64,000 bases of DNA from Gammaproteobacteria bacterium (GTDB lineage: Bacteria; Pseudomonadota; Gammaproteobacteria; JAJRRL01). The DNA lies in NCBI GenBank assembly GCA_024279495.1, contig JAJRRL010000040.1, positions 74,256 to 138,255 of the forward strand. The letters are read 5' to 3'. Shown here piece by piece: positions 27,250-47,769 of the stretch (position 1 is its first letter; each line of letters opens with the position of its first letter). Under the pieces are notes generated by a model. That model was not told the DNA's origin. It saw nothing but the letters and a program-made list of their open reading frames with translations, and did no database searches. The translations under genes and the position numbers were made by a program.

Positions 27250-28662
27250 GTGCCTAGATTAACCCGCCTTTTCGATCAAACCCATGGTGAAATTAACTTT
27301 CTTGACGCTAAAGGACGGGGAGAGATTTCGGGAGAGAGCGTAGGGGAAAATAAAGAAGGTTGGGAGTTTCGAGTTTCTATTTTTCCATCACGAAAGAATG
27401 TTCGAAAAGCAGCGCATGCTTTAGAGACCTTATATGAATCTAGACCAGATTTTCCCTCTTTAAAGTTGTACACCCCAAAAGAGGGTGAGCTTAAAGACCA
27501 AGATGGCTGGTGGGGGCCTTACAATGTTTCTTTGACAGATAAAAATCAATTGGGTAAAGAGTGCTGTGTTTATATCGATAAAGATCGAAACGGAAAAACA
27601 GCACTAAGCAAGGAAGAGTACATCGAGTTAATGGTGGCGATCTGGGCTGCTTTGGATAAAGCCGATGTTGATCTGGGTTATGTGGTAACACCTGTTGCTG
27701 AAAAGGCCGTGATTTGTGATGAGCTGGGTGTTATGTCTCCCATTTGTTATTCATCTGCTAAGCCATGGCGCAGAAAGCATGGCACTATGGTGGAGACTTC
27801 ATTTAACCCAGAAGGACATGAAGATCCACTGAAAGATGTTGTGATTCCTGTGAGCATGCTTAAGAAAGCGGGTGTTACCTTAGATCGTTATCGTTTGCAA
27901 GCAAACATTCCAAGGCAGACTCAACAGATTCAGAGGCTTGGGCAGGCTGTAAGCGATTGGAGTGCCGATTTTACTATTCTTCAGGAAGAGAATTTTTCTG
28001 GAGATTCCTTCGCCGATGAGTTAAGACGAGCGCGTCGTTTAGAGGTTGATTGGGGCAAGAAGGATTCAAAAATAAATTCTCAAACTGACCACAAGGCAGT
28101 GCTTGAGGAGACTCTTGCTGATTGGAAAGTATTTCGCTCAGATTTGAATGAGCATTTTGGTTTTAGTATTGTGGCGGATAAGGAGTTTTCTGAGATGATA
28201 GACTCATTGATAGCCAAGAATCCGCATGCTATGCAAAAACTTTATAGACGGGCGTTTCACATTAGTCGAGAGTTTAAGTCTCTTGAGCTCGCAAATAATA
28301 TGAGCAGTGCATTCATAGAGAAAATGAAGACGCAAAGAAAGGGTGAAACGGCTCTTTCAATTGTTTTTGGTTTGGGTTATACGGCGTCAGCGGTATGCAT
28401 TGGTTCTGCGACTAGCTTGGTGGTTAGCGCTATGCAAGTAGCAACCCAGCCCATGGCGACTGTCGGTTCTGCGATAGCTGCTTCGAACCCGGATTTTGCT
28501 ATTCTTGCGTCTATAGCTGCTGTCTGTTTGGCTATTGCTATCGTAGCGACTGTTTATCAGCGCAAGGTAAGTAGCCCTAAACAGATCAGTTTTTTAAGAG
28601 AACAAGAAAGTGTAAGGCAAGCTGCTTTAGAAGCTCCAAAAAATATTGGGACTGAATTATAA
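27250..28662 (+). CDS. ORFan with a C-terminal bilobed hydrophobic hairpin
   Basis: 470 aa, GTG start with strong SD; soluble N-terminal ~360 aa without known motifs; C-terminal ALSIVFGLGYTASAVCIGSATSLVVSAM...AILASIAAVCLAIAIVATVYQRK; lies between dnaE and the 3' end of tRNA-Leu(CAA). Confidence 0.6.
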   Translation: MPRLTRLFDQTHGEINFLDAKGRGEISGESVGENKEGWEFRVSIFPSRKNVRKAAHALETLYESRPDFPSLKLYTPKEGELKDQDGWWGPYNVSLTDKNQLGKECCVYIDKDRNGKTALSKEEYIELMVAIWAALDKADVDLGYVVTPVAEKAVICDELGVMSPICYSSAKPWRRKHGTMVETSFNPEGHEDPLKDVVIPVSMLKKAGVTLDRYRLQANIPRQTQQIQRLGQAVSDWSADFTILQEENFSGDSFADELRRARRLEVDWGKKDSKINSQTDHKAVLEETLADWKVFRSDLNEHFGFSIVADKEFSEMIDSLIAKNPHAMQKLYRRAFHISREFKSLELANNMSSAFIEKMKTQRKGETALSIVFGLGYTASAVCIGSATSLVVSAMQVATQPMATVGSAIAASNPDFAILASIAAVCLAIAIVATVYQRKVSSPKQISFLREQESVRQAALEAPKNIGTEL

Positions 28663-30811: not shown

Positions 30812-31540
30812 TTAGGCATCTTCTTCGTCTTCAGAAAAACCGCCTGCGTTATCGAGCTGGGGAATATACTTTAAAATAGAAGCGTTGTTGAGGTAGTGAG
30901 GGCTGTCTTCATTTTCAAGTAATGTGCGTAACTCATAAGAGGCTTTCGCCACAGCAGGGTTGGTTTTAGTTTCGGCAGCACGATGAAGCCCTCCAAGTGA
31001 TCCGGCCAAAGCGCAAAGTAGCATCGAGCCATTACGATCTTGAAAAGACGTGTGTGTGTCGTGATGAGTTTCTGCTTCGCGCACCCACTCACTGTCCATC
31101 ACTACATCCACAAAGTGATGTAGCACTCGGTCTTTTTCTAAATTTTCAGTATTAAGCTCTTCGGCGGTGATGATAGCAAACTGCTCCATTGACCACTGCT
31201 CATCAAAAAAACGTTGATTGTTACGAGGGTCATCTGGATTTGTGGGGTCTTGCCTCTCAGATTGTTGTTTTAACCATTTTTTAAAATTGACTAGGCCCAT
31301 TTTTTGAATCTCGCAAAGAATACGCATGTACTTAAATGAGTTTTCGGGAGAAACAGTGCTAAGCCAGTTTTTCATGGGTGTGGAGTTGAGTAAAAATAGA
31401 AAAAGGGCGTGGTCTGTCAGGTCTGGCGTTGAGCTTAAGCGAAGGGGTCTGCCTGATTTGGGTTTGGAAAGCTTTTTAATGTCATCCAAGAAGCGCTGAG
31501 CACCTTTGGGTTTCATGGTAAGTTTTATTTTTGAAGCCAT
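30812..31540 (-). CDS. ORFan with acidic C-terminal tail FSEDEEDA (E-block-like)
   Basis: 242 aa from the ATG at 31540 (MASKIKLTMKPKG...), which has a TTGATC/TATGAT promoter and GAGAGGA SD. The ORF-track start at 31615 would overlap the divergent neighbour; no known domain. Confidence 0.5.
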   Translation of the reverse strand: MASKIKLTMKPKGAQRFLDDIKKLSKPKSGRPLRLSSTPDLTDHALFLFLLNSTPMKNWLSTVSPENSFKYMRILCEIQKMGLVNFKKWLKQQSERQDPTNPDDPRNNQRFFDEQWSMEQFAIITAEELNTENLEKDRVLHHFVDVVMDSEWVREAETHHDTHTSFQDRNGSMLLCALAGSLGGLHRAAETKTNPAVAKASYELRTLLENEDSPHYLNNASILKYIPQLDNAGGFSEDEEDA

Positions 31541-31652
31541 GAGTATCCTCTCTAAAACGACACCATGATCATAGCACTCGCCCGCCGGTTTGATCAAGAA
31601 GCGATCCCCTGTCATACTAAGTCAACCTAAAGTAGAAGCTAAAGAGGGGCTT

Positions 31653-32807: not shown

Positions 32808-32948
32808 CAGGCATTTAATTTGCTCCCACGCATGAGATAATAACTCTTAAAACAAGAGTTTAAAATATTTTTTTGGAGCAACAGGCATGCCGTTTATAAG
32901 TATCTTTCCAGATTCTGCTGATCAGCAGCGCAGGAGCAACTTCTTGCT

Positions 32949-33266
32949 TTGTTAAGCAATGAGCCTTTCTGTCAAAGCGGCAGCGTAGCGTGGCAGCAGG
33001 CTGAAAGACAGGTATCTAAAGAGAATCAAGCGTATGAGGCTCTTCGTTCCTGGCTCTACAATCATTTACCCAAGCAATCGCTTAAATCGCTAATGGCTGG
33101 CCTTATTCGAGCAAAGTGTCATCGTGATGCGCCAAAGTTGGAGACTCTACTTTCATGCTTGCGTTCTGGGGACGATCCTGAGGAGTCTTTTTCTAAAGTC
33201 CTTGGCCAGCCTTATCAGTTAACGTGTGCAGTGTGGCTTGCTCTTAAATCGCTTCTTGAGAGGTGA
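32949..33266 (+). pseudogene. decayed paralog of the 34930-35532 ORF (gene remnant without ATG start)
   Basis: frame opens at TTG, no in-frame ATG, upstream TGA at 32919; C-terminal region LRSGDDPEESFSKVLGQPYQLTCAVWLALKSLL is paralogous to LSSESDPASYDQLQKLFCEVLGERYQLTCHVWGYLKSHL downstream. Confidence 0.4.
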
Positions 33267-33528
33267 GGCGATGCTAAAGTGATTTGGGGTAGATTATTGG
33301 TGATAGGTTATGCCGGAGACTTAGTAAAGCTACAAGAGCTGAGAAACGAGCTGGAACCTTTAAGCAGCCGCAAAATAATACGAAGATCCTTAGAGACTTC
33401 TCTTCACCTTTTGTGGGGGAGGTCTTATCAAGAGGCGATCAGCTAAGTACCGGTTGCTTTTAATGAGCATCATGCTTATGCCAATAGCGCTCAATTGCAA
33501 AGGGAAAGAGAGCAAGACGGAAGAAGCA

Positions 33529-33565
33529 GCGTCATCCCAACAAGAGGGTGATCGTTTCACGCTGA
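33529..33565 (-). repeat. displaced duplicate of the last ~12 codons plus stop of valS
   Basis: reverse complement CAGCGTGAAACGATCACCCTCTTGTTGGGATGA encodes QRETITLLLG-stop; the true valS terminus at 35602-35638 differs at 2 of 36 nt; ~15 further upstream nt also similar. Confidence 0.7.
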
Positions 33566-33655
33566 GTTCTAAGAAAGAACCCCTAAGCTGTTGATTTTTT
33601 CATTTTCGGGCCATTCATCCTTGTAAATCTGGAGTCATGTGCCATAATTGCAAGG

Positions 33656-34816
33656 ATGAAGCACCGATATTTACAACATACTCTCATTCAGCATTTGGAT
33701 GAGTTTCCTGCCGTAGCACTGCTAGGGCCGCGTCAAGTGGGTAAAACAACACTTGCTTTGGCGATTGCCGAGGCTATGCCTAGCATTTATCTTGATTTAG
33801 AGTCCCCAGCAGATCTGCATAAATTGACAGACCCTCTGAGTTATTTGCGTTTGCATGAAGATAAGCTAGTCATTATTGATGAAGTTCAACGCATGCCAGA
33901 GTTATTTCAAACGCTACGCGGCTTGATTGATGAAGGGCGCAGGAAGGGTTTGATTCGTTCGAGATTTCTATTGTTGGGTTCGGCTTCAATCGAGCTTATT
34001 AAGCAGTCAGGTGAAAGTTTGGCTGGGCGCATTGCTTATCTTGAGTTGGGTGGATTTACTTTGCCTGAAGTTGGTTTGGACTGTTCAAATCGCTTATGGC
34101 TTCAAGGAGGGTTCCCGAATAGTTACTTGATGAAAACGCCAGATAAAAGCATTTTATGGCGTAACAATTTTATTCGTACCTATTTGGAGCGTGATATTCC
34201 AGCTTTAGGGCCTCGTATTCCTGCTGAAACATTACGACGTTTTTGGACGATGCTGTCTCATCACCAGGGAACCTTGTTAAACGCAGCAGCTCTAGCGCGT
34301 AGTTTGGCGGTCGATGGAAAAACAATCGTTCGTTATTTGGATTTGCTAAGTGATTTGTTGCTTGTGAGAAAACTGCAGCCCTGGCACAGTAATGTGGGTA
34401 AGCGCTTAAGAAAGTCGGTTAAAGTGTATGTGAGAGATAGCGGCATAGTCCATGCTTTGCTAGGTATTACAGAACTCGAATCGCTGCTTAGTCATCCTAT
34501 TGCAGGAATGAGCTGGGAAGGTTTTATATTAGAAAATATTTTAATGATGCTTCCAAACCAGGTTCAGCCTTATTTTTATCGAACAAATGCTGGAGCTGAA
34601 ATAGATTTATTGCTTGTTTTTCCCGATGGAGCATTATGGGCTGTAGAAGTTAAACGAAGTATGACTCCAAAGCTAGAAAAGGGTTTTTACATTGCCTGCA
34701 ATGATTTAAACCCAACACGTTCTTTTGTGCTCTACCCAGGGGAAGATACTTATCCTTTATCTGACAACATAGAGGTGACAAGTCTAATGTCTTTTTTGCA
34801 GTTGTTGAGTAAATAA
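33656..34816 (+). CDS. AAA+ ATPase with DUF4143 domain (COG1373 family)
   Basis: 386 aa; Walker A ALLGPRQVGKTTLA near the N-terminus, Walker B LVIIDEVQ; family is widespread and often in accessory DNA; inverted repeat ATCCTTG(33617-33623)/CAAGGAT(33651-33657) overlaps its SD and start. Confidence 0.75.
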   Translation: MKHRYLQHTLIQHLDEFPAVALLGPRQVGKTTLALAIAEAMPSIYLDLESPADLHKLTDPLSYLRLHEDKLVIIDEVQRMPELFQTLRGLIDEGRRKGLIRSRFLLLGSASIELIKQSGESLAGRIAYLELGGFTLPEVGLDCSNRLWLQGGFPNSYLMKTPDKSILWRNNFIRTYLERDIPALGPRIPAETLRRFWTMLSHHQGTLLNAAALARSLAVDGKTIVRYLDLLSDLLLVRKLQPWHSNVGKRLRKSVKVYVRDSGIVHALLGITELESLLSHPIAGMSWEGFILENILMMLPNQVQPYFYRTNAGAEIDLLLVFPDGALWAVEVKRSMTPKLEKGFYIACNDLNPTRSFVLYPGEDTYPLSDNIEVTSLMSFLQLLSK

Positions 34817-34929
34817 AAAGGTCTACTTTGGTAGAATAAAATCAAAAAGATAGAATTCTCAGAAGCACTTAATGTGAGACTTAGTTTGTAATATAATAAG
34901 CTGAATCATTTTTTTAGGAGAGGTCAATC

Positions 34930-35532
34930 ATGCCTTCTGAAAAAGGTCAAAAAGAGGCTTATCTAGCCCGACAAAAAAAGGTTTATCAAGAGCTTAGCCA
35001 AAGGCTTGGCTCCTCTGGCAATGTTTCGTCTGAAGATCTTAGCCGCATGGCAGTTGAGCAGGTGCGTTAAGAAAATGGGCGCTATGAGGGATTTAGGGCA
35101 GAATTAAAAGAAAGGGTTGCCGTTAGAAAGGACGCAAGAGTCTTGCTGGCAGCAGTAAATCGCTCTGGTTTCGCGCGGAGTCATGGCCTGACACAGTTAG
35201 TAGAGCGGCTTTCCTCTGAGAGCGACCCAGCAAGCTATGATCAATTGCAAAAGCTATTTTGTGAGGTTTTGGGAGAGCGCTATCAGTTAACCTGTCATGT
35301 TTGGGGATATTTAAAGTCTCATCTAGCTAAAAAAGATGATGCAAAAGATCTCTGGAGTAGGTTGGTTTGCATTGGTTTTGCGAAAGACACACAGAAGCTT
35401 TCAGGCTTGTGTGAAGAGTTAGCTAAGACAGTGCAGTCGACCTGTACAAGAAGGTCAATGGAAGATGCTTTTTTCAGGGTGTGGGTGGCAGCTATGAGCG
35501 AGCCGTGCTTCAGGCGAGCCCAGTTGTTTTAA
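34930..35532 (+). pseudogene. hypothetical gene interrupted by an in-frame TAA (35068-35070)
   Basis: ATG at 34930 with strong SD AGGAGAGG; 46 codons, TAA, then the same frame continues through the ORF-track entry 35143..35532, which has no ATG of its own (TTG). Confidence 0.4.
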
Positions 35533-35601
35533 ATGAATTAGTTCAGCAAGCTCATAGCCAGCAAAACCAAAAGGAAGCTGAGCTGGATGCAAGAAGAGGA
35601 A

Positions 35602-38382
35602 TCATCCCAACAAGAGGGTGATTGTTTCACGTTGAGCGTTTAGTCGAACTAAGCCGTCGTTGGATTCAGCGAGCAAGGCTTTTTCTTTAGCTACAATTTC
35701 AGCCGGAGCATTGTCACAATAACGCGGGTTGTCGCATTTCTTTTTAGCGGTATCGCGTTGTTTGATGAGCTTAGCTATTTGTTTGTCTAAACGATCTAGG
35801 GCTTTATCAACATCAATCAACCCTTTTAGAGGGACAGTCACGATGGCTGCTTTAGCATTAGCGCAAGCACAACCGCCTGAGTTATCTTCTTCGCTCAACC
35901 ATTCAATATCACTGATTTTAGTGAGGCCTCTCCAAAGAGATTCGTGTTCTTGTAAGGTTTTTTTAGCAGATTCATTGGCGGCATATAGTCTGATCGCAAT
36001 GGGTTTTTTAGGAGAGATGTCAGACTCGCTGCGCAAACGCCGAATGTGTGTAATGAGATCTTGTAGTAGGGTCATGCTGTCTTCGGCATTCGTGTTTTTC
36101 CAGGCGTCAGAAGCCACAGGCATGGATTTTTGAATAACATATTCAGTGTTGCTAATTGGTGTGTAGTGAGGACGCATGTGCTGCCATAAAGATTCTGTTA
36201 CGTAAGGAATAATGGGATGCAGGCGCGCTATTAAATCAGTGATCACACGAGCTAACGTTGCTCGAGTTGCTGTTTTTTGTTCAGCAGATGCAAGGTCGCT
36301 ATTTAACGTGATTTTGCTGAGTTCTAAATACCAATCGCAAAAGTCATGCCAGGTAAATTCGTATAAGGCTTGTTGCAGCCAATCGAAACGATACTGAGCG
36401 AGTGCATTATCGCAACGTGTTAATGTGTTTTGCAGACGATGCATGATCCATTGATCGGCTAAGCTCTGATGCTCTGGTTTGGGTGCAGTGAAGCTCTCAT
36501 CACCTAATTGCAAGCCAACAAAACGAGTCGCATTCCAAAGCTTGTTGCAGAAGTGACGATAGCCTTCTGTTCTTGCCAAATCAAAGTTAATGTCTCGGCC
36601 AGTGGTTGCTAAAGCACAATACGTTAAACGAAGGGCATCGGTACCAAAGGCTGGAATGCCGTCGGGGAATTCTTTGCGAGTGGATTTTTCAATGGCCTTG
36701 GCTTGTTTGGGATTGATTAATCCGCCAACACGTTTCTCGACAAGTGTTTCTAGTTCGATGCCATCGATAAGGTCGATAGGATCAAGCACGTTCCCTTTTG
36801 TTTTCGACATTTTTTGGCCTTGTTGATCGCGAATAAGGCCGGTAATATAAATGTCTTTGAAAGGTACTTTGCCGGTTAGGGCTAAGCTCATCATGATCAT
36901 GCGAGCTACCCAGAAGAAAATAATATCGAAACCGGTGACTAATGTTCCGGTTGGAAAGTAAGTGTCGAGTTCAGGGGTTTGTTCAGGCCAACCCAGTGTG
37001 GCAAAAGGCCAAAGGCTTGATGAAAACCAGGTATCGAGTACATCTTCGTCTTGTTGAAGAGTGATGGAATCATCGAGTTGGTGGCGGGATCTGACATCTG
37101 CCTCGTCATGGCCAACATAGGCTTTTCCGTTTTCATCGTACCAAGCGGGAATGCGATGCCCCCACCAAAGCTGACGGCTGATGCACCAGTCTTGAATGTT
37201 TTCTAGCCATAAATCATAGGTTTTTTTCCAATTTTCAGGAATAAACTGCGCGTCACCTTGTTTAACGGCAGCCAAGCCATCTTTGGCTAGTCCGTCCATC
37301 TTTACAAACCATTGCAGAGTAAGCAAAGGCTCCAGAACTGCACCGCTACGATCGCCGGTTGGCACGTTTAAGGTATGTTTTTCGATAGACACAAGAAAGC
37401 CTTGCTCTTCAAGGTCAGCGAGTACGGCTTTACGAGCATCGGCGACAGACAAGCCTTGGTATTGTGAAGGAACTTCTTCATTGAGGGTGCAATCTAAAGT
37501 AAGCATGTTGATTGTGGGGAGATTGTGTCTTTGCCCCATGGCATAATCATTGAAATCATGAGCTGGGGTGATTTTAACGCAACCTGAACCAAAGTCTTGC
37601 TCTACGCTGTCGTCAGTAATGACAGGGATTTCGCGCCCACTTAAAGGCAGCTTTAAGTGACTGCCAACAAGAGCTTGATAGCGAGCATCGTCAGGGTGAA
37701 CAGCAACGGCAACATCAGCCAGCATGGTTTCAGGGCGAGTAGTGGCGATGGTAATGTAAGTGTCTTCTTGGCCGACGACGGGGTAGCGGATATGCCAAAG
37801 ATGCCCGTCTCGAGTGATGGATTCTACTTCCAGGTCAGAGACAGCTGTTTTTAAGACGGGATCCCAGTTCACTAAGCGTTGACCACGATAGATCAGGCCT
37901 TTTTCATGTAGGCGAATAAAGGCTTCTCGGGTTGCGTGTGTGAGATGCTCGTCCATGGTGAAGCGTTCGCATGACCAATCCACGTGTAGACCGAGGCGTT
38001 GCATTTGTTCAGAAATCCGATCGCCGGAGTAGTTTTTCCACTCCCAGATCTTGTCTAGAAAGGCTTTCCGACCAAGGTCATGGCGAGACTTGCCTTCTTC
38101 TTTTTGAAGTCGACGTTCGACTAACATTTGAGTAGCAATTCCAGCGTGGTCTGTGCCGACTTGCCAGTGGGTTTTTTTGCCGAGCATGTGCTGACTTCGG
38201 ATGAGGATATCCATCAGGGTCTGCTGAAACCCATGCCCCATGTGCAAACTGCCGGTGACATTTGGGGGGGGGAGCATGACGCAGTAGGGTTCGCCACTGT
38301 TCTTTTTTTGAGCTAGCTCGTGGGTTTTCCACTGGTCTTTCCAGTGAGATTCAATCGCGGTTGGGTTCAGAGTCTCGTTCAT
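35602..38382 (-). CDS. valS: valyl-tRNA synthetase
   Basis: class I aaRS; MNETLNPTAIESHW N-terminus aligns with E. coli ValS, LPPPNVTGSLHMGHGF (HIGH), KMSKTKGN (KMSKS), C-terminal coiled coil. The ORF-track start at 38508 is a 42-codon upstream extension. Confidence 0.9.
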   Translation of the reverse strand: MNETLNPTAIESHWKDQWKTHELAQKKNSGEPYCVMLPPPNVTGSLHMGHGFQQTLMDILIRSQHMLGKKTHWQVGTDHAGIATQMLVERRLQKEEGKSRHDLGRKAFLDKIWEWKNYSGDRISEQMQRLGLHVDWSCERFTMDEHLTHATREAFIRLHEKGLIYRGQRLVNWDPVLKTAVSDLEVESITRDGHLWHIRYPVVGQEDTYITIATTRPETMLADVAVAVHPDDARYQALVGSHLKLPLSGREIPVITDDSVEQDFGSGCVKITPAHDFNDYAMGQRHNLPTINMLTLDCTLNEEVPSQYQGLSVADARKAVLADLEEQGFLVSIEKHTLNVPTGDRSGAVLEPLLTLQWFVKMDGLAKDGLAAVKQGDAQFIPENWKKTYDLWLENIQDWCISRQLWWGHRIPAWYDENGKAYVGHDEADVRSRHQLDDSITLQQDEDVLDTWFSSSLWPFATLGWPEQTPELDTYFPTGTLVTGFDIIFFWVARMIMMSLALTGKVPFKDIYITGLIRDQQGQKMSKTKGNVLDPIDLIDGIELETLVEKRVGGLINPKQAKAIEKSTRKEFPDGIPAFGTDALRLTYCALATTGRDINFDLARTEGYRHFCNKLWNATRFVGLQLGDESFTAPKPEHQSLADQWIMHRLQNTLTRCDNALAQYRFDWLQQALYEFTWHDFCDWYLELSKITLNSDLASAEQKTATRATLARVITDLIARLHPIIPYVTESLWQHMRPHYTPISNTEYVIQKSMPVASDAWKNTNAEDSMTLLQDLITHIRRLRSESDISPKKPIAIRLYAANESAKKTLQEHESLWRGLTKISDIEWLSEEDNSGGCACANAKAAIVTVPLKGLIDVDKALDRLDKQIAKLIKQRDTAKKKCDNPRYCDNAPAEIVAKEKALLAESNDGLVRLNAQRETITLLLG

Positions 38383-38473
38383 GGTAATGTATGTCTTTCT
38401 TGTTATCGTGAGTGTGAAGCACAGATCGGTAGGTGTGAGCCGCGCGCGGGATCTCAGGGCCTGATGAGACCCA

Positions 38474-39601
38474 TTGTTCCATAAAATAGGACCATTGTCA
38501 GTGATCATTTGGCGTTATATTTGCAAAGAAGCAAGCCGAGCTTTACTCGCTACGGTAGCTGTCTTGTTATTGGTCTTAGTAACCAATCAGTTGGTTCACT
38601 ACCTCAACCAGGCTTCTATTGGTCAACTTTCCGTCCAGGCTGTGATTGCCGTTGTGATTTTAGAAATCCCCACCTTGTTGGCATTCATGCTGCCATTGGG
38701 TGTCGTCTTGGGTTTGTTAATCACCTTGGGCCGCTTAGTGGCCGACCAAGAAATGATTGTGCTCTTTGCTGGTGGTTTTTCTCGTCGTCGTCTTTATAGT
38801 ATGGTTGCATCCATGGGCTTAATCATGAGTTTGCTGGTTTTGTGGTTGACTGGCTTTGTTGCTCCGGCCTGTCGATCTTGGCAGGAAGGCGTTTTGGTAA
38901 ATGCCATTAAGGCGACTAGTTTAAGTAAAGTCATTCCTGGAGAGTTCATGTCATTAGGGCATGGTGGTCGCGTTTTGTATGCTGGTCAAGCAGCATCGCA
39001 TTCTCATTTGGGGAATGTCTTTTTTGCCTCTCCGCAAGTGTCTCATGCCAACACAGCAGGTTGGTCTTTGTTATTGGCTGATGATGTCTCTCAGCAAAGG
39101 CATGGTACTTTAGCCGGAGCCTTTCTATTTAATCGAGGACAGCATTATACCGTTCCGATCGATAGTAACGCCTGGGAGACCATGACATTTCAGCGATACG
39201 ATTGGCGATTGGAGCGATCCAAGTCGTCTCATTCTGATTCATTGGCAGCTTGGTCTTTAGCTCGTCTTTGGCGAAACAGGCATACTTGGACTTTATCAGA
39301 AGCGGTGGAATGGCAATGGCGATTTGCTATGCCTTTTGCGGTGCTTGCTTTAGCATTTATGGTGGTGCCTCTTACTCAGCTGTCACCGAGGCAGGGTAAG
39401 TTTATGCGTTTACTGCCTGCTGTTATGCTTTATTTAATCTATGCTAACGTGCTTTTCTTATGTAAAAGTTGGTTGCTTCAAGGGCGTTATCCGCTTTTGA
39501 TTGGCTTATGGTGGCTGCCTGTTTTAGCCCTGAGTTTGGTTTTGGTGCGCGAATTTGGCAAATGGTTATCGTGGCGTCTCAGGAGGCGAGGGGATTCATG
39601 A
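38474..39601 (+). CDS. lptF: LPS export ABC transporter permease LptF
   Basis: 375 aa YjgP/YjgQ-family permease; N-terminus VIIWRYICKEA resembles E. coli LptF MIIIRYLVRE. The exact start is uncertain (a later GTG/ATG is possible). Confidence 0.75.
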   Translation: MFHKIGPLSVIIWRYICKEASRALLATVAVLLLVLVTNQLVHYLNQASIGQLSVQAVIAVVILEIPTLLAFMLPLGVVLGLLITLGRLVADQEMIVLFAGGFSRRRLYSMVASMGLIMSLLVLWLTGFVAPACRSWQEGVLVNAIKATSLSKVIPGEFMSLGHGGRVLYAGQAASHSHLGNVFFASPQVSHANTAGWSLLLADDVSQQRHGTLAGAFLFNRGQHYTVPIDSNAWETMTFQRYDWRLERSKSSHSDSLAAWSLARLWRNRHTWTLSEAVEWQWRFAMPFAVLALAFMVVPLTQLSPRQGKFMRLLPAVMLYLIYANVLFLCKSWLLQGRYPLLIGLWWLPVLALSLVLVREFGKWLSWRLRRRGDS

Positions 39602-40665
39602 AGCACGGCATTTTGTTTCGTTACTTATCAAGACACCTCATTATCACGTTATTGGGGGTGCTTTCAGTGCTTGCTGCGCTGGAATGTGTGATCGGTATTA
39701 TTGGTGAGTTATCAAGCGTTGGTCATGGAGGTTATACCTTTGTATTGGCTTTGAAAACGGTTTTCTTACAATTGCCTATGCTGGTATACGATTTGTTTCC
39801 TGTCAGTATTTTTTTATCGGTTCTGCTGACTTTAAGCCTGCTTGGTAATCGTCAAGAAATAGTGGTAATGAGAGCAGCAGGTTTATCGGTTGCCGGGTTT
39901 TGTTGGCGTTTGTTGCTAGCTGTGGCTTTAATCACTGTGGTTGTTGTGAGTTTAGCAGAGGGTTTTTCGCCGTCGTGGTATCAGAAGGCAACACAAATTA
40001 GAAATCAAGAAACACGTCAAAGTGGTGAACCCATTCATACGGGCGGTCATTGGTTTCATGATGCCCCTTATTTTATTTATGTTGGTTCTCAAGCAAGTGC
40101 AAAAGAACTTCTCCATCTTCAATGGTTTTTGTTAGGCGATGATCAAGTACTTCATCAATCAGGTTATGCAGAAAAGGTAGAAAAAGAAGGTAGCAGGTGG
40201 GTGGCTGAAACAGCAGGCTTATCGAGTATTGAGCATGGGTCTGTTAAGAAACATACACATCTTCATTATACCTTGCCTATGTCCATTGATCTGTCTCAAT
40301 GGCAGTCTGATCGAAAAGCAGCGATTGGGATGACGTTATGGGAGCTGCATAAGACTATAGAGGTAAGGCAAGCGTCAGGAGCTTCTTATGCGCGTTTAGC
40401 GATGGCTTTTTGGTCGAGAGTTTGGGCTCCTGTCGGCGGCTTAGTTCTTGCCTTGCTAGCCGTGCCGTTTTCTTTTGGTACCATGAGACGATTCAAGACA
40501 GGGACTCGCTTAGTGATTGGCGTGATGGTCGGATTTATTTTTTACATGATTAATCAATTGTTGGCGCCATTTACGGTGGTTTTACTGTGGTCTCCCTTTT
40601 GGGTAAACTGCGTGCCGATCGTCTTATTTTCATTATTAGCCGGGCATTTATTGAAAAAGGTTTAA
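39598..40665 (+). CDS. lptG: LPS export ABC transporter permease LptG
   Basis: YjgP/YjgQ-family permease beginning [15 protein letters not shown] at the ATGA overlap with the lptF stop. The ORF-track start at 39469 is an in-frame upstream extension. Confidence 0.75.
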
Positions 40666-40669
40666 AGCA

Positions 40670-42238
40670 ATGAGTCATTCCAAAGAGCGATGTACGTTCG
40701 CCATTATATCGCATCCTGATGCAGGTAAAACAACACTCACCGAAAAATTATTATTGCTTGGTGGGGCGATAGCCTTGGCAGGAACAGTGAAGGGTCGAAA
40801 GGCTTCTCGTTATGCGACCAGTGATTGGCTAGAGCTAGAGAAAAAACGTGGCATCTCAGTGACGACATCAGTTATGCAGTTTCCCTACAAGGATGTTGTT
40901 ATTAATTTGCTTGATACCCCAGGGCATGCCGACTTTTCTGAAGATACGTATCGTACTTTAACCGCTGTCGATTCAACCATTATGGTGCTTGATGTGGCTA
41001 AAGGTGTGGAAGAGCGTACTTTAAAGTTAATGGAAGTCTGCCGCCTTAGAGACACACCTATCATGACTTTCATTAATAAGTTAGATCGAGAGGGTATGGA
41101 TCCACTAGAGCTTTTGGATCATATTGAAAAAGTACTCGGTATTACGTGCGCTCCTGTTACGTGGCCCATAGGCTCAGGTAAATCCTTTAAAGGGATTTAC
41201 CATCTTTTAGAAGATAGGTTGTATCTTTATGACCCTGCGTGCAAATCAGATCATAACGTAGCGCCAACGGTAGATGGCTTGAAGTCTGACGAAGCAAAAG
41301 AAGCTTTAGGAGACGATTACTCTGACTTTTGTGAATCAGTTGAGTTGGTACAAGCTGCTTGCATGGAGTTTGATCGTCCGTTGTATTTGTCCGGTGATAT
41401 CACACCGGTGTATTTTGGTTCTGCCATGAATAATATGGGTGTGCGTGAACTTTTAGATGGGTTTACGCAATATGCTCCTAGGCCTTTATCGCGCCAAACA
41501 TTAACGCGAAAAGTTGAACCAACGGAAAACACGTTTTCAGGGTTTGTGTTTAAGATACAAGCCAACATGGATCCTCAGCATCGTGATCGAATGGCTTTCA
41601 TGCGTATAGTCTCCGGGAGTTATCGAAAAGGCATGAAGACGTATCATGTGCGAGAAGCTAAGCAGGTATCGTTTCATAGTGTGCATACGTTTATGGCTGC
41701 CCAGCGAGAGCACGCAGAATCAGCTGAAGCAGGCGATATTGTAGGAATACATACGCATGGTGGCATTAAAATAGGAGATGCTTTCACAGAAGGTGAGTCT
41801 TTAAAATATATTGGCATCCCGCATTTTTCGCCTGAATTGTTTCGAGTGGTAAGGTTAACAGATCCCCTAAAACAAAAAGCCTTGGTGAAAGGTTTGGTGC
41901 AGTTGTCAGAAGAAGGGGCAACTCAGGTGTTTCGCCCACTTTTTGGTAACGACATTATTTTGGGGGCGATTGGTGTATTGCAGTTTGATGTGGTGGCTCA
42001 TCGTTTAGAATCGGAATATCGTGTGAGTTGTGTCTATGAAGCAGCTCAGGTGGCTTTGGCTTTGTGGGTGGAAGCCGATGACGATCTTTTGCTGGAGCGT
42101 TTCAAAGAGCAAGAGAAACGACATTTAGCGATTGATGGCTCTGGCGCACTTACTTATTTGGCGCCGTCACGATTTAGCTTGCAAGTCACGCAAGAGTACT
42201 GGCCTGATATTCAATTTTTAAGGCAAAAAGACGTCTAG
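40670..42238 (+). CDS. prfC: peptide chain release factor 3 (translational GTPase)
   Basis: 522 aa; G1 [24 protein letters not shown] motifs and RF3-specific domains. Confidence 0.9.
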
Positions 42239-43696: not shown

Positions 43697-45034
43697 TCAA
43701 TATTCAGGCCTAACATGTCGCTCCATATCCTTAAGAAGGTGCGATAACTTCTGCCCTGCTTTTTTATGTTGGCCTAGAAAAATAGAACTTTCTTTTTGGC
43801 TGAAATGATGTGATTTCTTGGCGCAATAAGTAGTTAAGACGATTGATATGGCAGCTACAATCAAGCAGGCAACGCCAGCAAAAATAAGAGTGTTTGTGTC
43901 GATGGGTGTGGCGCTGCTTGAAAGAATGCTTGATATAATGGCAGTCATTAAGCTAGCGCCAGCGGCAGCAGATATGCCGGCGCCAAATCCATAGCCAATG
44001 GCTTTTTTGAGAGACCTAGGTTTCTGTCTCAATATTTTTCTAGAAGGAACAGCATTAAGGCCATTGAGAACCTCGGGGTAGTTAATGTCTTCAATTTGAG
44101 TTCTGAATTGTTCTTCTAATTTTGATTCTGAGATGGAGGGAAGCATTTTTTTAATATGATCATGGTATCGTATGTTGGTGATCAGTTTTGCGATCTCCTT
44201 AATAGAGAGTTTAGAGATATTCCTCAGCGATAAAGCAGCTTTTTCGTGGGTGAGTAATTGAATCAAGCAGGCAATAGGAGGCTCTTCTTCGGTAAATAGT
44301 TTAGCATGACTGTTTGAGAGCTCTAGGCTTGTTGTACGAAGAGAGAGGAAGTAGAGAAAAGAGTTATTCTTTATGTCTTTTAGGTGGCTAGCAAAGAGTC
44401 GCAGTATAAGAGGTGTGCTCGCATTGCATAGCGTTTTGAGCTGTGCTTCAGGGAGAGATGAGAGGATGTTAATGATCGATTCTCTAAAATCGATATCATC
44501 AACGGTATACGGCATGAGCTCTGCCATTTTCTCTTCCCCAAAATGTTTTTCAAGATAGCTTATTTGGGTTTCTTTAGAGTATTCTTTTTTCTTACTATTG
44601 ATGGTTTTAATGGACCCTCTTACTTTTATCTCATTACTTTGTGCTCGCCGCCTTCCGGCTATTGTCTCGGATAAGCGGTCTATGATAGTTAAAAAATGAG
44701 TCAAGGTGGTGAGAGAGTCGTCGTCTCTAATGATCCTTAACTCTAGAGGCTTAAGCTCGGTTAAGTCCTCTAAAAGCGCTTGTATATACTCTTCATCGTC
44801 TTCAAATTCTCTTTCTATCGTCATGATGAGGGCTATTTTTTCTTCGCCTAAGTGTTGTAGCAAGTAATCAAGCTTGCCGGGGCTCTCTGCTTTTCCTTCG
44901 AGAGGGCCCGGCATTCCTTGCCTGAAAAGGCAAAGGATAACTGCGGATAGCGATTCATTTCCCTCTAAGGCCTTCTGGATGCCGGGGGGTAGGCTGTTTA
45001 CTGCTATTCTTTTGGGGGGATCTAAATCAGGCAC
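43697..45034 (-). CDS. ORFan with C-terminal bilobed hydrophobic hairpin
   Basis: 445 aa; soluble helical N-terminal region; C-terminal AIGYGFGAGISAAAGASLMTAIISSILSS...LIFAGVACLIVAAISIVLTTYCAKK; no known family. Confidence 0.6.
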   Translation of the reverse strand: MPDLDPPKRIAVNSLPPGIQKALEGNESLSAVILCLFRQGMPGPLEGKAESPGKLDYLLQHLGEEKIALIMTIEREFEDDEEYIQALLEDLTELKPLELRIIRDDDSLTTLTHFLTIIDRLSETIAGRRRAQSNEIKVRGSIKTINSKKKEYSKETQISYLEKHFGEEKMAELMPYTVDDIDFRESIINILSSLPEAQLKTLCNASTPLILRLFASHLKDIKNNSFLYFLSLRTTSLELSNSHAKLFTEEEPPIACLIQLLTHEKAALSLRNISKLSIKEIAKLITNIRYHDHIKKMLPSISESKLEEQFRTQIEDINYPEVLNGLNAVPSRKILRQKPRSLKKAIGYGFGAGISAAAGASLMTAIISSILSSSATPIDTNTLIFAGVACLIVAAISIVLTTYCAKKSHHFSQKESSIFLGQHKKAGQKLSHLLKDMERHVRPEY

Positions 45035-45231
45035 CTGGGGTTCCTTGTTTAAAGAAAGCTTAATAAGCCCATTTTACCATCCTCAGCCTGAAAAGCAACA
45101 AATAAGGTCAAATAAAGAGCAAGGAAAGGTCTAGCTCCTTGATTTTGAGTTTCTGGAAAGTTGCTTTTCTTTGAATCAGTTTGTAATTAATGCTATAATG
45201 ACTACTATTCTGGTTAAAAGAGAGGTGTAGC

Positions 45232-47769
45232 GTGCCGAAAAGAAAAAGGTTTGATCTTCGTCATCAATTACTCATAGATACTGAGAACCTGCATTTGCAG
45301 GTAGAGCGTTTGCGTGCCTTTTTAAAAAAACAGCAGTTAAATGAAGAAAATGAACCTGCAGCTTCATTAAATCAAGATGAGCGCCGTCTATTGCAATTAA
45401 ATGAGAGAATTCTTACTTTTATAGACGAGCAGCTAAGAAAATCAGAGAAGACCTTGAATCACTTGCAAGAAAAAGGTTTTGATCTAACACCAATGTCAAA
45501 GGCCTTAGCTTTCATAAGTAATTGCATGGAATCCTTGGTTCGCTTTATAACTCAGTGGCGAGTCACTGCTAATAGTGACAATGGCTTTTTGAATCAATTT
45601 CAGAGTTCTGTTGGTAATCATTTAGAAGAAGATGGATTAGCAGAATTAAGTTACCTCTTAGCTTTTGCATCGCATGCAGGGAATATGAATTTGTCACAAC
45701 CAATTAGTATTCAATTGTCGATGCTTGAAACCATGGAGATGGTGTATCAGCCACTTCCTAATCATATTCAGTTAATGGTTGCCTCTCAAGATTGGGACAC
45801 GAACACAAACCCTTTTAGTATGTTAAAAGTAGCTCATGATGTCATGGCTTTAATGGCGGGTTCAACCCTATTACGAGGAGCTGACTCTCCTAATTTTGTG
45901 TTAGCGCCTCATTGTAAATCGACAGTAGGGCGTGGCCCCATGATGTGTCACGCTGTTATGTTTGCAATGATGTTGGATCCTACTTTTGAGAAGTACCGCT
46001 CGGTATTTTATCAGAAACTCGCTTTTTTATTAGGTCCAAAACCAATTAATAGACAAAGGTATATGGCAGCGATTGCTGATTCAGCTTCCCAAATACCTAA
46101 TAATAATTCAGAAAAAGAGAATTATGTGTTGGCCTTTCCTAGCGGTGCGGCCAAGGACACTGATTTGATTCAGGACTTACTGTCGCTTGCCGATTTATTA
46201 GCTGAGCGAGTGCCAACGCCAATGGCTTATCGTGTTCAAGAAAAACGAGCAAAAGGACCTTTTTTACGAACAAAGCAAGTGCTAGCAACGCGCTATGGTC
46301 ACTTGAGAAACGCTCCTAAAGGGGCTCAGAATAAATACTCTTTTGCTACCTATCGTTTAGCAGAGTTAAGGGAGAGCCTGAGCAATGATCAATTAACACA
46401 TCAAGCTATTTCTGATTACCTCACCTCAAAGCGAAGAATGGGTTATTTTAAAGGAGGTAGAGAAGGGAAGTTGATGCTACTTAAAATGCTCGATGTCTTT
46501 TTTAGAGAAAATGACTCGTCACTGATTCACCGAGGCATGACTTTTAACGACACTGAGCTTACTCACGCTTTAAACCAGTTGCTTTCAATTGCGTTGAATT
46601 ACTCAAGTGATGCGTTTCTTCAAGATTCTACGCTTACTACCACGGGTTGGTATTCGAAAAGACGAAAAGACTATGAAGAGCAGTTAAGTCAGAATCATGG
46701 TACGCCGGGCTCTTCGATGAATCGTCCTGTACGCCGAGTGCGTCGTATGCAGGGTCTTAATTCGGATGATGATGCTCGCTCAGGGCGACAAGGTGTGGAA
46801 CCCGATTATCAAACAAGAGAGCTGGCTAATACTGATTTGGCAGACATGACGTTGCAAGAAGAAGATAAGTTTAAGCAGTGGAAAGAGGCTCTTAAACAGC
46901 AATTGCCGAGCCTTAAAGATGCGTCTTCTTTAATTAAACATTTAGTAAAAGAGACGAAGCGAGACATGCCTTTAAAAGAACTTCAAAGGCATATCAAGCG
47001 TTATTTAAATTTTGCTATGAATGCTTTGGACAGGAAAGAGAGAAGCCTGGATGAAAAAGAAAAGATACCGAAGCAAGAAGAATACTTGGGTAGGGGCGCT
47101 GTCCGTCGTGAGCACATGAACCACATGAGTAAAGTGCTAGCTATGTGGTTAAGACAAATGGCTGCAGGCGAATGCAGCTTTCCGGATTTAAGTGATGAAG
47201 CATTGAATGAGCATCTGATGATGCTTCCGTCTCGCTCTAAGCGACTTTTCTCGTCACGTAAAACCTCTAAAGCAGTTGCCAAGCTGCCAGAGTCTATTTT
47301 GAGTGCTATTAAAGATTTACTGTCTGAGAGGAATTCTAATCAGAATGTGGAGAGACCTCCTATTAGGTTTACTTTTCGAGATCAGCGTCAAGCAAAAGAG
47401 TTGCCAAATATGAATAGCCTCAATACAGCCGTGGGCGTTCGTTCTTTAGCTACCCACATGCATGATAAGCAGCACACACGTATCGAGCTGGGTCCACTTA
47501 AGTTGGAGCTGCTTTCTCATAAGGACCTTTACGAATACCGCGATATTTCGGCATTTAAACGTGATGAATCGGCGGTGCTTGCGGCCAATCATGCGCTTAA
47601 TCTTCGTTGGCAATCAGGCAAGCTTCCTGAAAAGTTTGATTTTCATCAGGTGGTCAGCTTAGGTCATTTGGGTTTTCTTAAAGAAGCTCAGTATTTCCAC
47701 GAGCTTTCAAGAAGTATCCCAGAAGAAAATCCAGTAGCCAGCAATCAGCAGTCGGCTCCTACCCTTTAA
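45232..47769 (+). CDS. 845-aa ORFan (basic N-terminus MPKRKRF, large helical protein, no recognisable domain)
   Basis: long uninterrupted ORF with plausible promoter TAATTAATGCTATAAT at 45174-45194; starts with GTG. Confidence 0.6.
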   Translation: MPKRKRFDLRHQLLIDTENLHLQVERLRAFLKKQQLNEENEPAASLNQDERRLLQLNERILTFIDEQLRKSEKTLNHLQEKGFDLTPMSKALAFISNCMESLVRFITQWRVTANSDNGFLNQFQSSVGNHLEEDGLAELSYLLAFASHAGNMNLSQPISIQLSMLETMEMVYQPLPNHIQLMVASQDWDTNTNPFSMLKVAHDVMALMAGSTLLRGADSPNFVLAPHCKSTVGRGPMMCHAVMFAMMLDPTFEKYRSVFYQKLAFLLGPKPINRQRYMAAIADSASQIPNNNSEKENYVLAFPSGAAKDTDLIQDLLSLADLLAERVPTPMAYRVQEKRAKGPFLRTKQVLATRYGHLRNAPKGAQNKYSFATYRLAELRESLSNDQLTHQAISDYLTSKRRMGYFKGGREGKLMLLKMLDVFFRENDSSLIHRGMTFNDTELTHALNQLLSIALNYSSDAFLQDSTLTTTGWYSKRRKDYEEQLSQNHGTPGSSMNRPVRRVRRMQGLNSDDDARSGRQGVEPDYQTRELANTDLADMTLQEEDKFKQWKEALKQQLPSLKDASSLIKHLVKETKRDMPLKELQRHIKRYLNFAMNALDRKERSLDEKEKIPKQEEYLGRGAVRREHMNHMSKVLAMWLRQMAAGECSFPDLSDEALNEHLMMLPSRSKRLFSSRKTSKAVAKLPESILSAIKDLLSERNSNQNVERPPIRFTFRDQRQAKELPNMNSLNTAVGVRSLATHMHDKQHTRIELGPLKLELLSHKDLYEYRDISAFKRDESAVLAANHALNLRWQSGKLPEKFDFHQVVSLGHLGFLKEAQYFHELSRSIPEENPVASNQQSAPTL

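Follow-up and report, generated by a model that had tools for sequence, protein, structure and literature searches.

How did the 3' end of a core gene come to be present twice in one chromosome, with a candidate defence gene standing between the two copies? The question is raised by the valS (valine-tRNA ligase) locus in a 64,000-nt stretch of a gammaproteobacterial contig (JAJRRL010000040.1, positions 74,256–138,255; the whole of this stretch is hereafter called the window, and coordinates refer to it). In this locus, a unit consisting of a small orphan gene and the end of valS occurs twice in direct order, and an intact ATPase gene assigned to the candidate defence system PDC-S01 lies between the two units as accessory DNA; the initial annotation of the sequence had described the doubled unit and the accessory ATPase correctly. 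We propose, giving it about an even chance of being right, that the locus is an acquisition scar in which two diverged alleles of the orphan gene and valS end, derived from two lineages, were stacked one behind the other. The locus marks the 3' flank of valS as an entry site of foreign DNA in this genome. Of the genes in the interval, the candidate defence ATPase alone still works, and the two orphan genes, possibly effector-like, are dead. Such a scar is ordinary in kind but unusually readable.

The 3' End of valS Occurs Twice

The valS gene occupies positions 35602–38382 on the minus strand, within a 968-codon open reading frame (ORF) that reaches 38508; M43 is the likely start. Its tail can be aligned with those of other valS proteins (…LNAQ…), has no unusual length, and on this alignment is native and not a fusion. 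The tails differ between genera. A direct repeat of 35 nt was found at 33532–33566 and 35602–35636, with 33 of the 35 positions identical. The recurrence of the valS end that had been noted from the sequence was thereby confirmed, although 3 nt to the right of the coordinates first given. The right copy comprises the real valS stop codon and last 11 codons (QRETITLLLG*), and the left copy, a displaced valS terminus, encodes the same peptide. When each half of the 35-mer was searched in the window with up to three mismatches allowed, only these two copies were recovered, compared with an expectation of 0 in shuffled sequences. The longest identical stretch between them is a 21-nt block that codes in two genes, and this core had 0 matches in metagenome contigs. 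On these searches, the 35-mer is not a motif present at many unrelated loci, which had been named as the observation that would overturn its derivation from valS.

The reason for the dual coding is a second gene, convergent with valS on the plus strand, which overlaps valS tail to tail by 20 nt and has its own stop codon inside the repeat. This orphan gene is also present twice, and the last six codons and the stop codon of both copies lie within the 35-mer, so that both end in …(V/I)IPTRG*. In the 20-nt overlap, the third codon position of valS is the second position of the orphan gene, and the third position of the orphan gene is the second position of valS; thus, if both tails matter, no base is free to change, and positions 35602–35621 are constrained in both frames.

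High identity sets in precisely at the stop codon of valS (35602). Immediately to its left, identity falls to ~63%, a weaker similarity that extends across ~48–80 nt (p=0.0005). The other end is equally abrupt: to the right of 33566 there was no similarity to valS, the alignment score being that of the shuffle mean, and an extension of valS homology past this point was rejected. The right repeat runs on into valS. The identity of 94% within the 35-mer contrasted with 47% in the adjoining 606 aligned nt (P=3e-9), and the two mismatches, at 33553 and 33562, both fall at third codon positions of valS and are synonymous (ACG/ACA and CAG/CAA). Neutral decay of the left copy was rejected on two counts, namely, the presence of no more than two differences in the 15 nt after the orphan stop codon (P=0.002) and the lack of any change at the orphan gene's six synonymous positions (P=0.002). 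The tract thus behaves as if both copies were once working valS ends. We also considered a structural or regulatory role of the 35-mer, which contains a 7–8-bp imperfect palindrome around a 7-nt spacer; this candidate was rejected, as the hairpin was not significant (z from -0.04 to -2.0), no terminator-like site was present, and there was no Rfam match.

Two Long-Diverged Orphan Genes, Probably Inactivated Recently

Two paralogous ORFs had been listed to the left of the two repeat copies. Their homology was upheld (tblastx, 42% over 90 aa and 54% over 39 aa, E=3e-27), whereas the ORFs themselves turned out to be fragments: each copy represents one gene of ~230 codons on the plus strand. Copy 1 (32887–33551) runs from an ATG at 32887 to the ancestral stop codon TGA at 33549–33551 (…VIPTRG*); its ATG is in a frame other than that of the gene body, and in-frame stop codons occur at 32919, 33264, and 33444. 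Copy 2 (34930–35621) runs from an ATG at 34930 to the ancestral TGA at 35619–35621 (…IIPTRG*) and is interrupted by a TAA at 35068–35070 and, near 35485, by a -1 frameshift within a run of G residues. Judged from these stops and frame changes, both copies are pseudogenes, as had been supposed of both small genes.

When repaired, copy 2 matched copy 1 at 38% over 203 aa (tblastn, E=8e-29), and amino acid identity over 209 aligned codons was 41%, with 47% nucleotide identity outside the repeat. Identity at codon positions 1, 2, and 3 was 0.45, 0.60, and 0.37, respectively. Near saturation at third positions, together with the order 2 > 1 > 3, indicates a long divergence under selection at the protein level. 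On the other hand, only two to four disabling lesions were found in each copy, which points to recent inactivation.

The origin of the gene itself was sought widely. A HMMER search with copy 2 against 1.84 billion representative proteins returned only itself, besides one faint match (E=7e-6) of residues 16–43 to the DUF4116 repeats in a eukaryotic RCC1-DUF4116 protein (P0002). The likeness is that of the segment RKDARVLLAAVNRSGFARSHG, at 35071–35160 (about residues 62–89 of copy 2). The orphan gene is not matched by the DUF4116 model of Pfam itself. No family in Pfam, NCBIfam, or PADLOC matched, and tblastn detected neither a third copy in the window nor any copy adjoining valS in 80 other genomes. 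It is plausible that the orphan gene is a fast-evolving, effector-like gene.

A Proposed History of Two Stacked Alleles

The contrast in divergence, the boundary at the valS stop codon, the synonymous mismatches, and the rejection of neutral decay, taken together, suggest that the units most probably diverged in separate genomes, where each stood beside a working valS, and that their joining was recent. As the orphan copies carry few lesions and the left 35-mer is almost undecayed, the joining event would be late relative to the divergence of the alleles.

We proposed the following course of events. Two lineages would have shared the arrangement of orphan gene and valS, and in one of them a PDC-S01 cassette would have stood just upstream of the orphan gene. 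DNA of one lineage would then have entered the other and recombined with it by a homologous crossover, which may have occurred at any point of valS or within the 35-mer; the 21-nt dual-coding block of the latter would have been kept identical by constraint. At the other end, the abrupt cessation of homology at 33566/33567 suggests an illegitimate joint, placed 35 nt inside the resident valS terminus. An equivalent route would be the entry of a 2,070-bp circle through a Campbell-type single crossover in the 35-mer. Either way, the product would be orphan copy 1 with the old valS end, followed by a spacer, the ATPase cassette, a second spacer, and orphan copy 2 with the working valS end; a few mutations would afterwards have inactivated both orphan copies. 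If so, where two genes overlap tail to tail, a short tract can be kept from changing and persist as a landmark for recombination between otherwise diverged genomes.

The ATPase Gene Is Part of a Foreign Cassette with Tight Boundaries

The gene between the two units (33656–34816, plus strand) is intact and encodes an AAA_14 P-loop ATPase at its N-terminus (PF13173, 1.2e-23; Walker A GPRQVGKTT, Walker B VIIDEVQ) and a full-length DUF4143 domain at its C-terminus (PF13635, 3.4e-47, model positions 1–160 of 160) with a PD-(D/E)xK-like EID…EVK motif; the protein thus combines an ATPase, a helix-turn-helix (HTH)-like region, and a PD-(D/E)XK domain. DUF4143 is a member of the PD-(D/E)XK superfamily (PMC3424549). 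The PADLOC profile PDLC04790 matched the protein over its full length (7.1e-89), and six further PDC-S01 models matched as well. PDC-S01 is a candidate single-gene defence system of PADLOC in which AAA_14 is fused to DUF4143 (PMC12988326; PMC3424549), and its anti-phage activity is still unvalidated (PMC12988326). The protein of the window has both domains of PDC-S01, its catalytic motifs are intact, and its distribution is likewise that of a horizontally mobile gene; no difference at the protein level was apparent.

Thousands of homologs at 63–78% amino acid identity were found in Alpha- and Gammaproteobacteria, Thermodesulfobacteriota, and other groups, including 164 plasmid records, 61 of them conjugative; homologs were hardly ever found on phages. 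The contrast between ATPase homologs of up to 78% identity and a valS C-terminal half without any match above 47% marks the ATPase as foreign, and it was, on these comparisons, clearly acquired horizontally. At the nucleotide level, the window and the three ATPase loci closest to it are homologous only over 33612–34797, which comprises an upstream block of ~45 nt and the ORF. A sharing of flanks with these loci was considered and rejected, since the sequences on either side are unrelated and lie in different genomic contexts.

The upstream block (33613–33660, plus strand) is a conserved, putative palindromic promoter/operator block with TTGTAA, 16 nt, and TG-CATAAT, in which an inverted repeat (TTCATCCTTGTAA…TTGCAAGGATGAA) ends on the start codon. 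In an alignment of 62 loci (L081–L161), nearly all close ATPase homologs shared such a block of ~40 nt ending on the start codon, with a -35-like TTGCAA, a spacer of ~17 nt, and TG-CATAAT within an inverted repeat CCTTGCAA…TTGCAAGG. The arms of the repeat co-vary between subfamilies: 77.5% were paired, compared with 66.7% in shuffles, and the covariation of 0.298 (0.127 when shuffled) was reached in 0 of 500 shuffles, with values of 0.06–0.12 in slid controls. The block of the window folds at z=-4.5 and has no Rfam family. As the -10 element lies just 7 nt before the ATG, the mRNA of the ATPase may be leaderless and the palindrome may be an operator. No description of the palindromic promoter block or of flanking repeats of PDC-S01 was found in the literature that we searched.

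The cassette is set between two spacers. The junction spacer (33567–33612) does not resemble the sequences that flank ATPase cassettes elsewhere. The AT-rich spacer on the other side (34817–34929, plus strand, GC ~0.35) contains a promoter-like site at 34828–34856 and the ribosome-binding region of orphan copy 2, and it is not conserved beside other ATPase cassettes.

Direct Repeats Recur around Homologous ATPase Loci

Other DUF4143 genes flanked by similar repeats were searched for, as had been suggested on the basis of the valS locus. We sampled 63 metagenome loci of ATPase homologs with usable flanks and scored repeats at E<=1e-3 with one copy on each side of the ATPase; random 1.2-kb segments of valS loci (n=148) served as controls. 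Direct repeats flanked 10 of the 63 ATPase loci and 4 of the 148 controls, whereas inverted repeats were found at 0/63 and 2/148, respectively. The enrichment of direct repeats, about five times (5.9-fold), was significant (Fisher p=0.001, or 0.003 without one duplicate locus). The repeats, among them those of L086, L104, L120, L145, L160, and L088, were 27–490 nt long and 80–98% identical, for example 166 nt at 89% around 1.41 kb (L160), 239 nt at 96% (L145), and 489 nt at 80% (L120). Some of the inserts bounded by direct repeats are minimal and consist of the cassette only (1.27–1.43 kb).

Two of these loci are particularly informative. In L086, a second, 51-nt copy of the 3' end of a convergent tRNA-Met gene (3714–3764 and 5192–5242) is displaced across a 1.43-kb insert that consists of the ATPase only, lies between ppx and rnd, and is devoid of an integrase; the geometry is that of the valS locus. 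In L104, a DUF6880 gene and the ATPase are bracketed by two copies of yaiI (1252–1657 and 5472–5877) with 86% identity over 406 nt. These copies differ by 48 synonymous and 8 nonsynonymous codon changes, with 7, 3, and 47 differences at the three codon positions, and the left copy has lost its native 3' end at the joint. This pattern of substitution leaves no doubt that an apparent "duplication" of this kind can consist of two working alleles lying side by side and not of copies made by insertion.

Other repeats appear to be of a different nature. In L083, a 45-nt hairpin repeat (4483–4527 and 8102–8146; TCATCC…GGATGA followed by a T run) with 87% identity brackets the ATPase and a fragment of an IS240-family transposase, and a third, partial copy is inverted; it looks like a repetitive extragenic palindromic (REP)- or terminator-type sequence rather than a duplicated target. 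In a cassette subfamily from peat metagenomes (L137, L138, L141, L147–L149, L156, and L161), a 27-nt motif, TGCTCTTTCATGTGnTTCTGGACACAT, was observed ~26–50 nt past the ATPase stop codon and in some loci also ~70–90 nt before the start. It includes the start (ATGAAAGAG, minus strand) of the neighbouring gene. We considered the motif as an element-borne site in the subfamily L137–L163 and rejected this; more probably, the cassette was inserted once in an ancestor, at the start of a minus-strand gene and with a short duplication, and related contigs share this event.

Alternative Origins of the Locus

An ancient tandem duplication of the orphan gene and valS end within this genome, followed by insertion of the ATPase, would account directly for two units of identical layout in direct order (~32887–33566 and 34930–35636). 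The climb of identity toward the 3' end, from 47% through 63% to 94%, also speaks for it, as does the small hairpin that the 35-mer can form; in this history, the left 35-mer would have been preserved by gene conversion from the right copy or by a function of its own. However, the divergence is not uniform along the unit as a single date predicts (47% vs 94%, P=3e-9), and a left copy free of valS constraint should have decayed (P about 0.002, twice). Neither of the means of preservation helps: gene conversion requires homology on both sides, and the right side has none; a constraint centred on the orphan gene or on the hairpin fails to predict a tract that starts at the valS stop codon; and the hairpin is not significant (z -1.3 to -2.0) and has no Rfam match. 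The landing of the ATPase exactly at the junction of the units would, in addition, be a coincidence. We consider this history unlikely. Thus, although the initial annotation rightly recognized a scar of rearrangement and acquisition, the single-event tandem duplication or long target duplication that it offered as the simplest history finds no support in the 47% and 94% identities and the valS-synonymous mismatches. A site-specific integration at the 3' end of valS of a 2,070-bp miniature element carrying the ATPase and orphan copy 2, with the 35-mers as left and right attachment sites (attL and attR) and an integrase acting in trans, is favoured by several features: direct repeats that contain and restore the 3' end of the target gene are a classic signature of islands, the repeat includes a 7–8-bp imperfect palindrome around a 7-nt spacer, and the tRNA-Met locus L086 with its 51-nt repeats is alike. 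Yet neither the element nor the ORFs scanned between 8.2 and 61.6 kb contained an integrase or transposase, the window offered no third att copy (up to three mismatches) for tandem accretion, and the core 21-mer was absent from metagenome contigs. Repeats at other loci, at 150–490 nt and 80–96% identity, are unlike att sites and show coding-type divergence. Homologous genes outside attL and inside attR, with stop codons in register within the repeat, are left unexplained by such an element. This origin, which would liken the locus to a cis-mobilisable element (CIME) or a decayed island, appears improbable. Two standard classes were rejected. A transposon or insertion sequence would need terminal inverted repeats, but none bound 33567–35601, there is no transposase, and the 35-nt repeat runs on into homology of gene length; for an integron cassette, the 35-mer does not follow the ATPase ORF, inspection revealed no RYYYAAC/GTTRRRY cores, and no integrase was found in the ORFs scanned.

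The ATPase-nuclease itself might be mobile, its insertion making long and variable target duplications. The protein unites an ATPase, an HTH-like region, and a PD-(D/E)XK domain, direct repeats are enriched around its homologs, some inserts are minimal, and the cassette boundaries are tight. Repeats made by insertion would start out identical, however, and those at valS, L104, and L120 are 80–94% identical with differences of the kind left by selection; beyond the promoter block there are no conserved element ends or terminal repeats, and 53 of the 63 loci have no repeat. Mobility of this kind is very unlikely to be responsible. A broader but quite unlikely possibility is that PDC-S01 genes, which rank with the most frequent candidate defence genes of prokaryotes, travel as integrase-free minimal cassettes (palindromic promoter plus ORF) whose spread depends on or generates long direct repeats of the host adjoining gene ends; RecA-driven excision with Campbell-type re-integration and the protein's own ATPase-nuclease activity are conceivable routes. 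If true, the valS scar would be one footprint of a so far undescribed mode of mobility. The co-varying promoter block and the enrichment of host-derived repeats provide a testable lead on the movement of this very abundant candidate. An assembly artefact, in which two co-existing strain variants of the valS flank were joined in series in a metagenome-derived contig, deserves mention because the units resemble alleles of two lineages and the data come from a single 203,529-bp NCBI contig without near relatives. Nevertheless, the units overlap exactly over no more than 21 nt, which would not suffice for joins at the usual final k-mer sizes, the junction 33566/33567 lies at no shared sequence, composition is uniform, and the same topology occurs in independent assemblies; we regard an artefact as highly improbable. 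The proposal of two stacked alleles has difficulties of its own, and several observations weigh against it. The argument from exclusively synonymous changes rests on n=2 mismatches. Given the variability of valS tails between genera, the 11 of 11 identical tail residues need a fairly close donor, yet the synonymous sites of the orphan gene are saturated; both could hold only in a Legionella-like case, in which species are deeply diverged, the tails of housekeeping genes are conserved, and orphan genes evolve very fast. A crossover within 21–35 nt of identity would be inefficient. The GC content at third codon positions (GC3) of valS, scanned for a recombination break, formed a continuous gradient without a sharp step, from 0.59 over codons 1–100 to 0.34–0.43 near the 3' end, compared with 0.36–0.45 in other genes of the window. 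Finally, no host relative was present in the searched collections, so that neither an empty site nor the donor arrangement is visible.

Genomic Context of the valS Locus

The window is part of a core chromosome, with sufBCDS, ddl, dnaE, folE, lptFG, and prfC amid many large ORFs without a Pfam match. Its overall composition is uniform, with no island signal. Examples of the large Pfam-less ORFs (267–883 aa) are found at 10874–15048, 27250–28662, 30812–31615, 43697–47769, and 57603–60254, and their presence among core genes fits a host-associated, effector-rich lineage. The nearest valS matches belong to Legionellales and other gammaproteobacterial metagenome-assembled genomes and reach only 47%; for the C-terminal half of valS, nothing above 47% was found in GTDB species genomes or among 5.8 billion protein clusters. 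The protein search with this half missed even the genome's own valS. The folE and prfC proteins of the host are singletons at 90% identity, and exact-protein look-ups across contigs gave no match. In the same protein collection, the ATPase, folE, prfC, and a 129-aa orphan fragment were all present as singletons from the one 203,529-bp contig. The gene order at 35602–42238 is unlike that in L011, L027, L057, and others: lptF-lptG-prfC lies directly upstream of valS, in divergent orientation. Several relatives have prfC immediately downstream of valS and convergent to it, at the place taken here by the orphan/ATPase interval.

Comparison with Known Systems

Homologous genes on both sides of a foreign cassette invite comparison with three known kinds of event. 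Genomic islands and cis-mobilisable elements integrate at the 3' ends of tRNA or protein genes and are bounded by att direct repeats. As in these elements, the repeats of the valS locus hold the 3' end of the target, the target gene is intact, and accessory or defence cargo lies in between; unlike in them, no integrase was found, homologous diverged genes lie to the left of both repeats, there is no third site, and the repeats of related loci greatly exceed att cores in length and divergence. In Campbell-type integration, a circle that carries a segment homologous to the host enters by a single crossover. The valS locus likewise presents the homologous segment as direct repeats around what would be the remainder of the circle, and the repeat spacing of 2,070 bp would equal the size of the circle; the differences are that only 35 nt are similar enough for recombination here and that the case is known from sequence, no circle having been observed. 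Homology-facilitated illegitimate recombination has reportedly been described for transformation in Acinetobacter and Streptococcus pneumoniae (de Vries & Wackernagel 2002; Prudhomme et al. 2002). It shares with the valS locus a conserved anchor gene (here valS) on one side, an abrupt non-homologous joint on the other, and a foreign accessory gene brought beside a core gene. It differs in that the joint here lies inside the terminus of the anchor, so that resident DNA was duplicated and not deleted, and in that the putative donor would have carried its own diverged neighbour gene, which would have produced stacked alleles; the mechanism at valS is one that we infer. The valS locus would add, from a lineage without sequenced relatives, one more case to a type of event already known.

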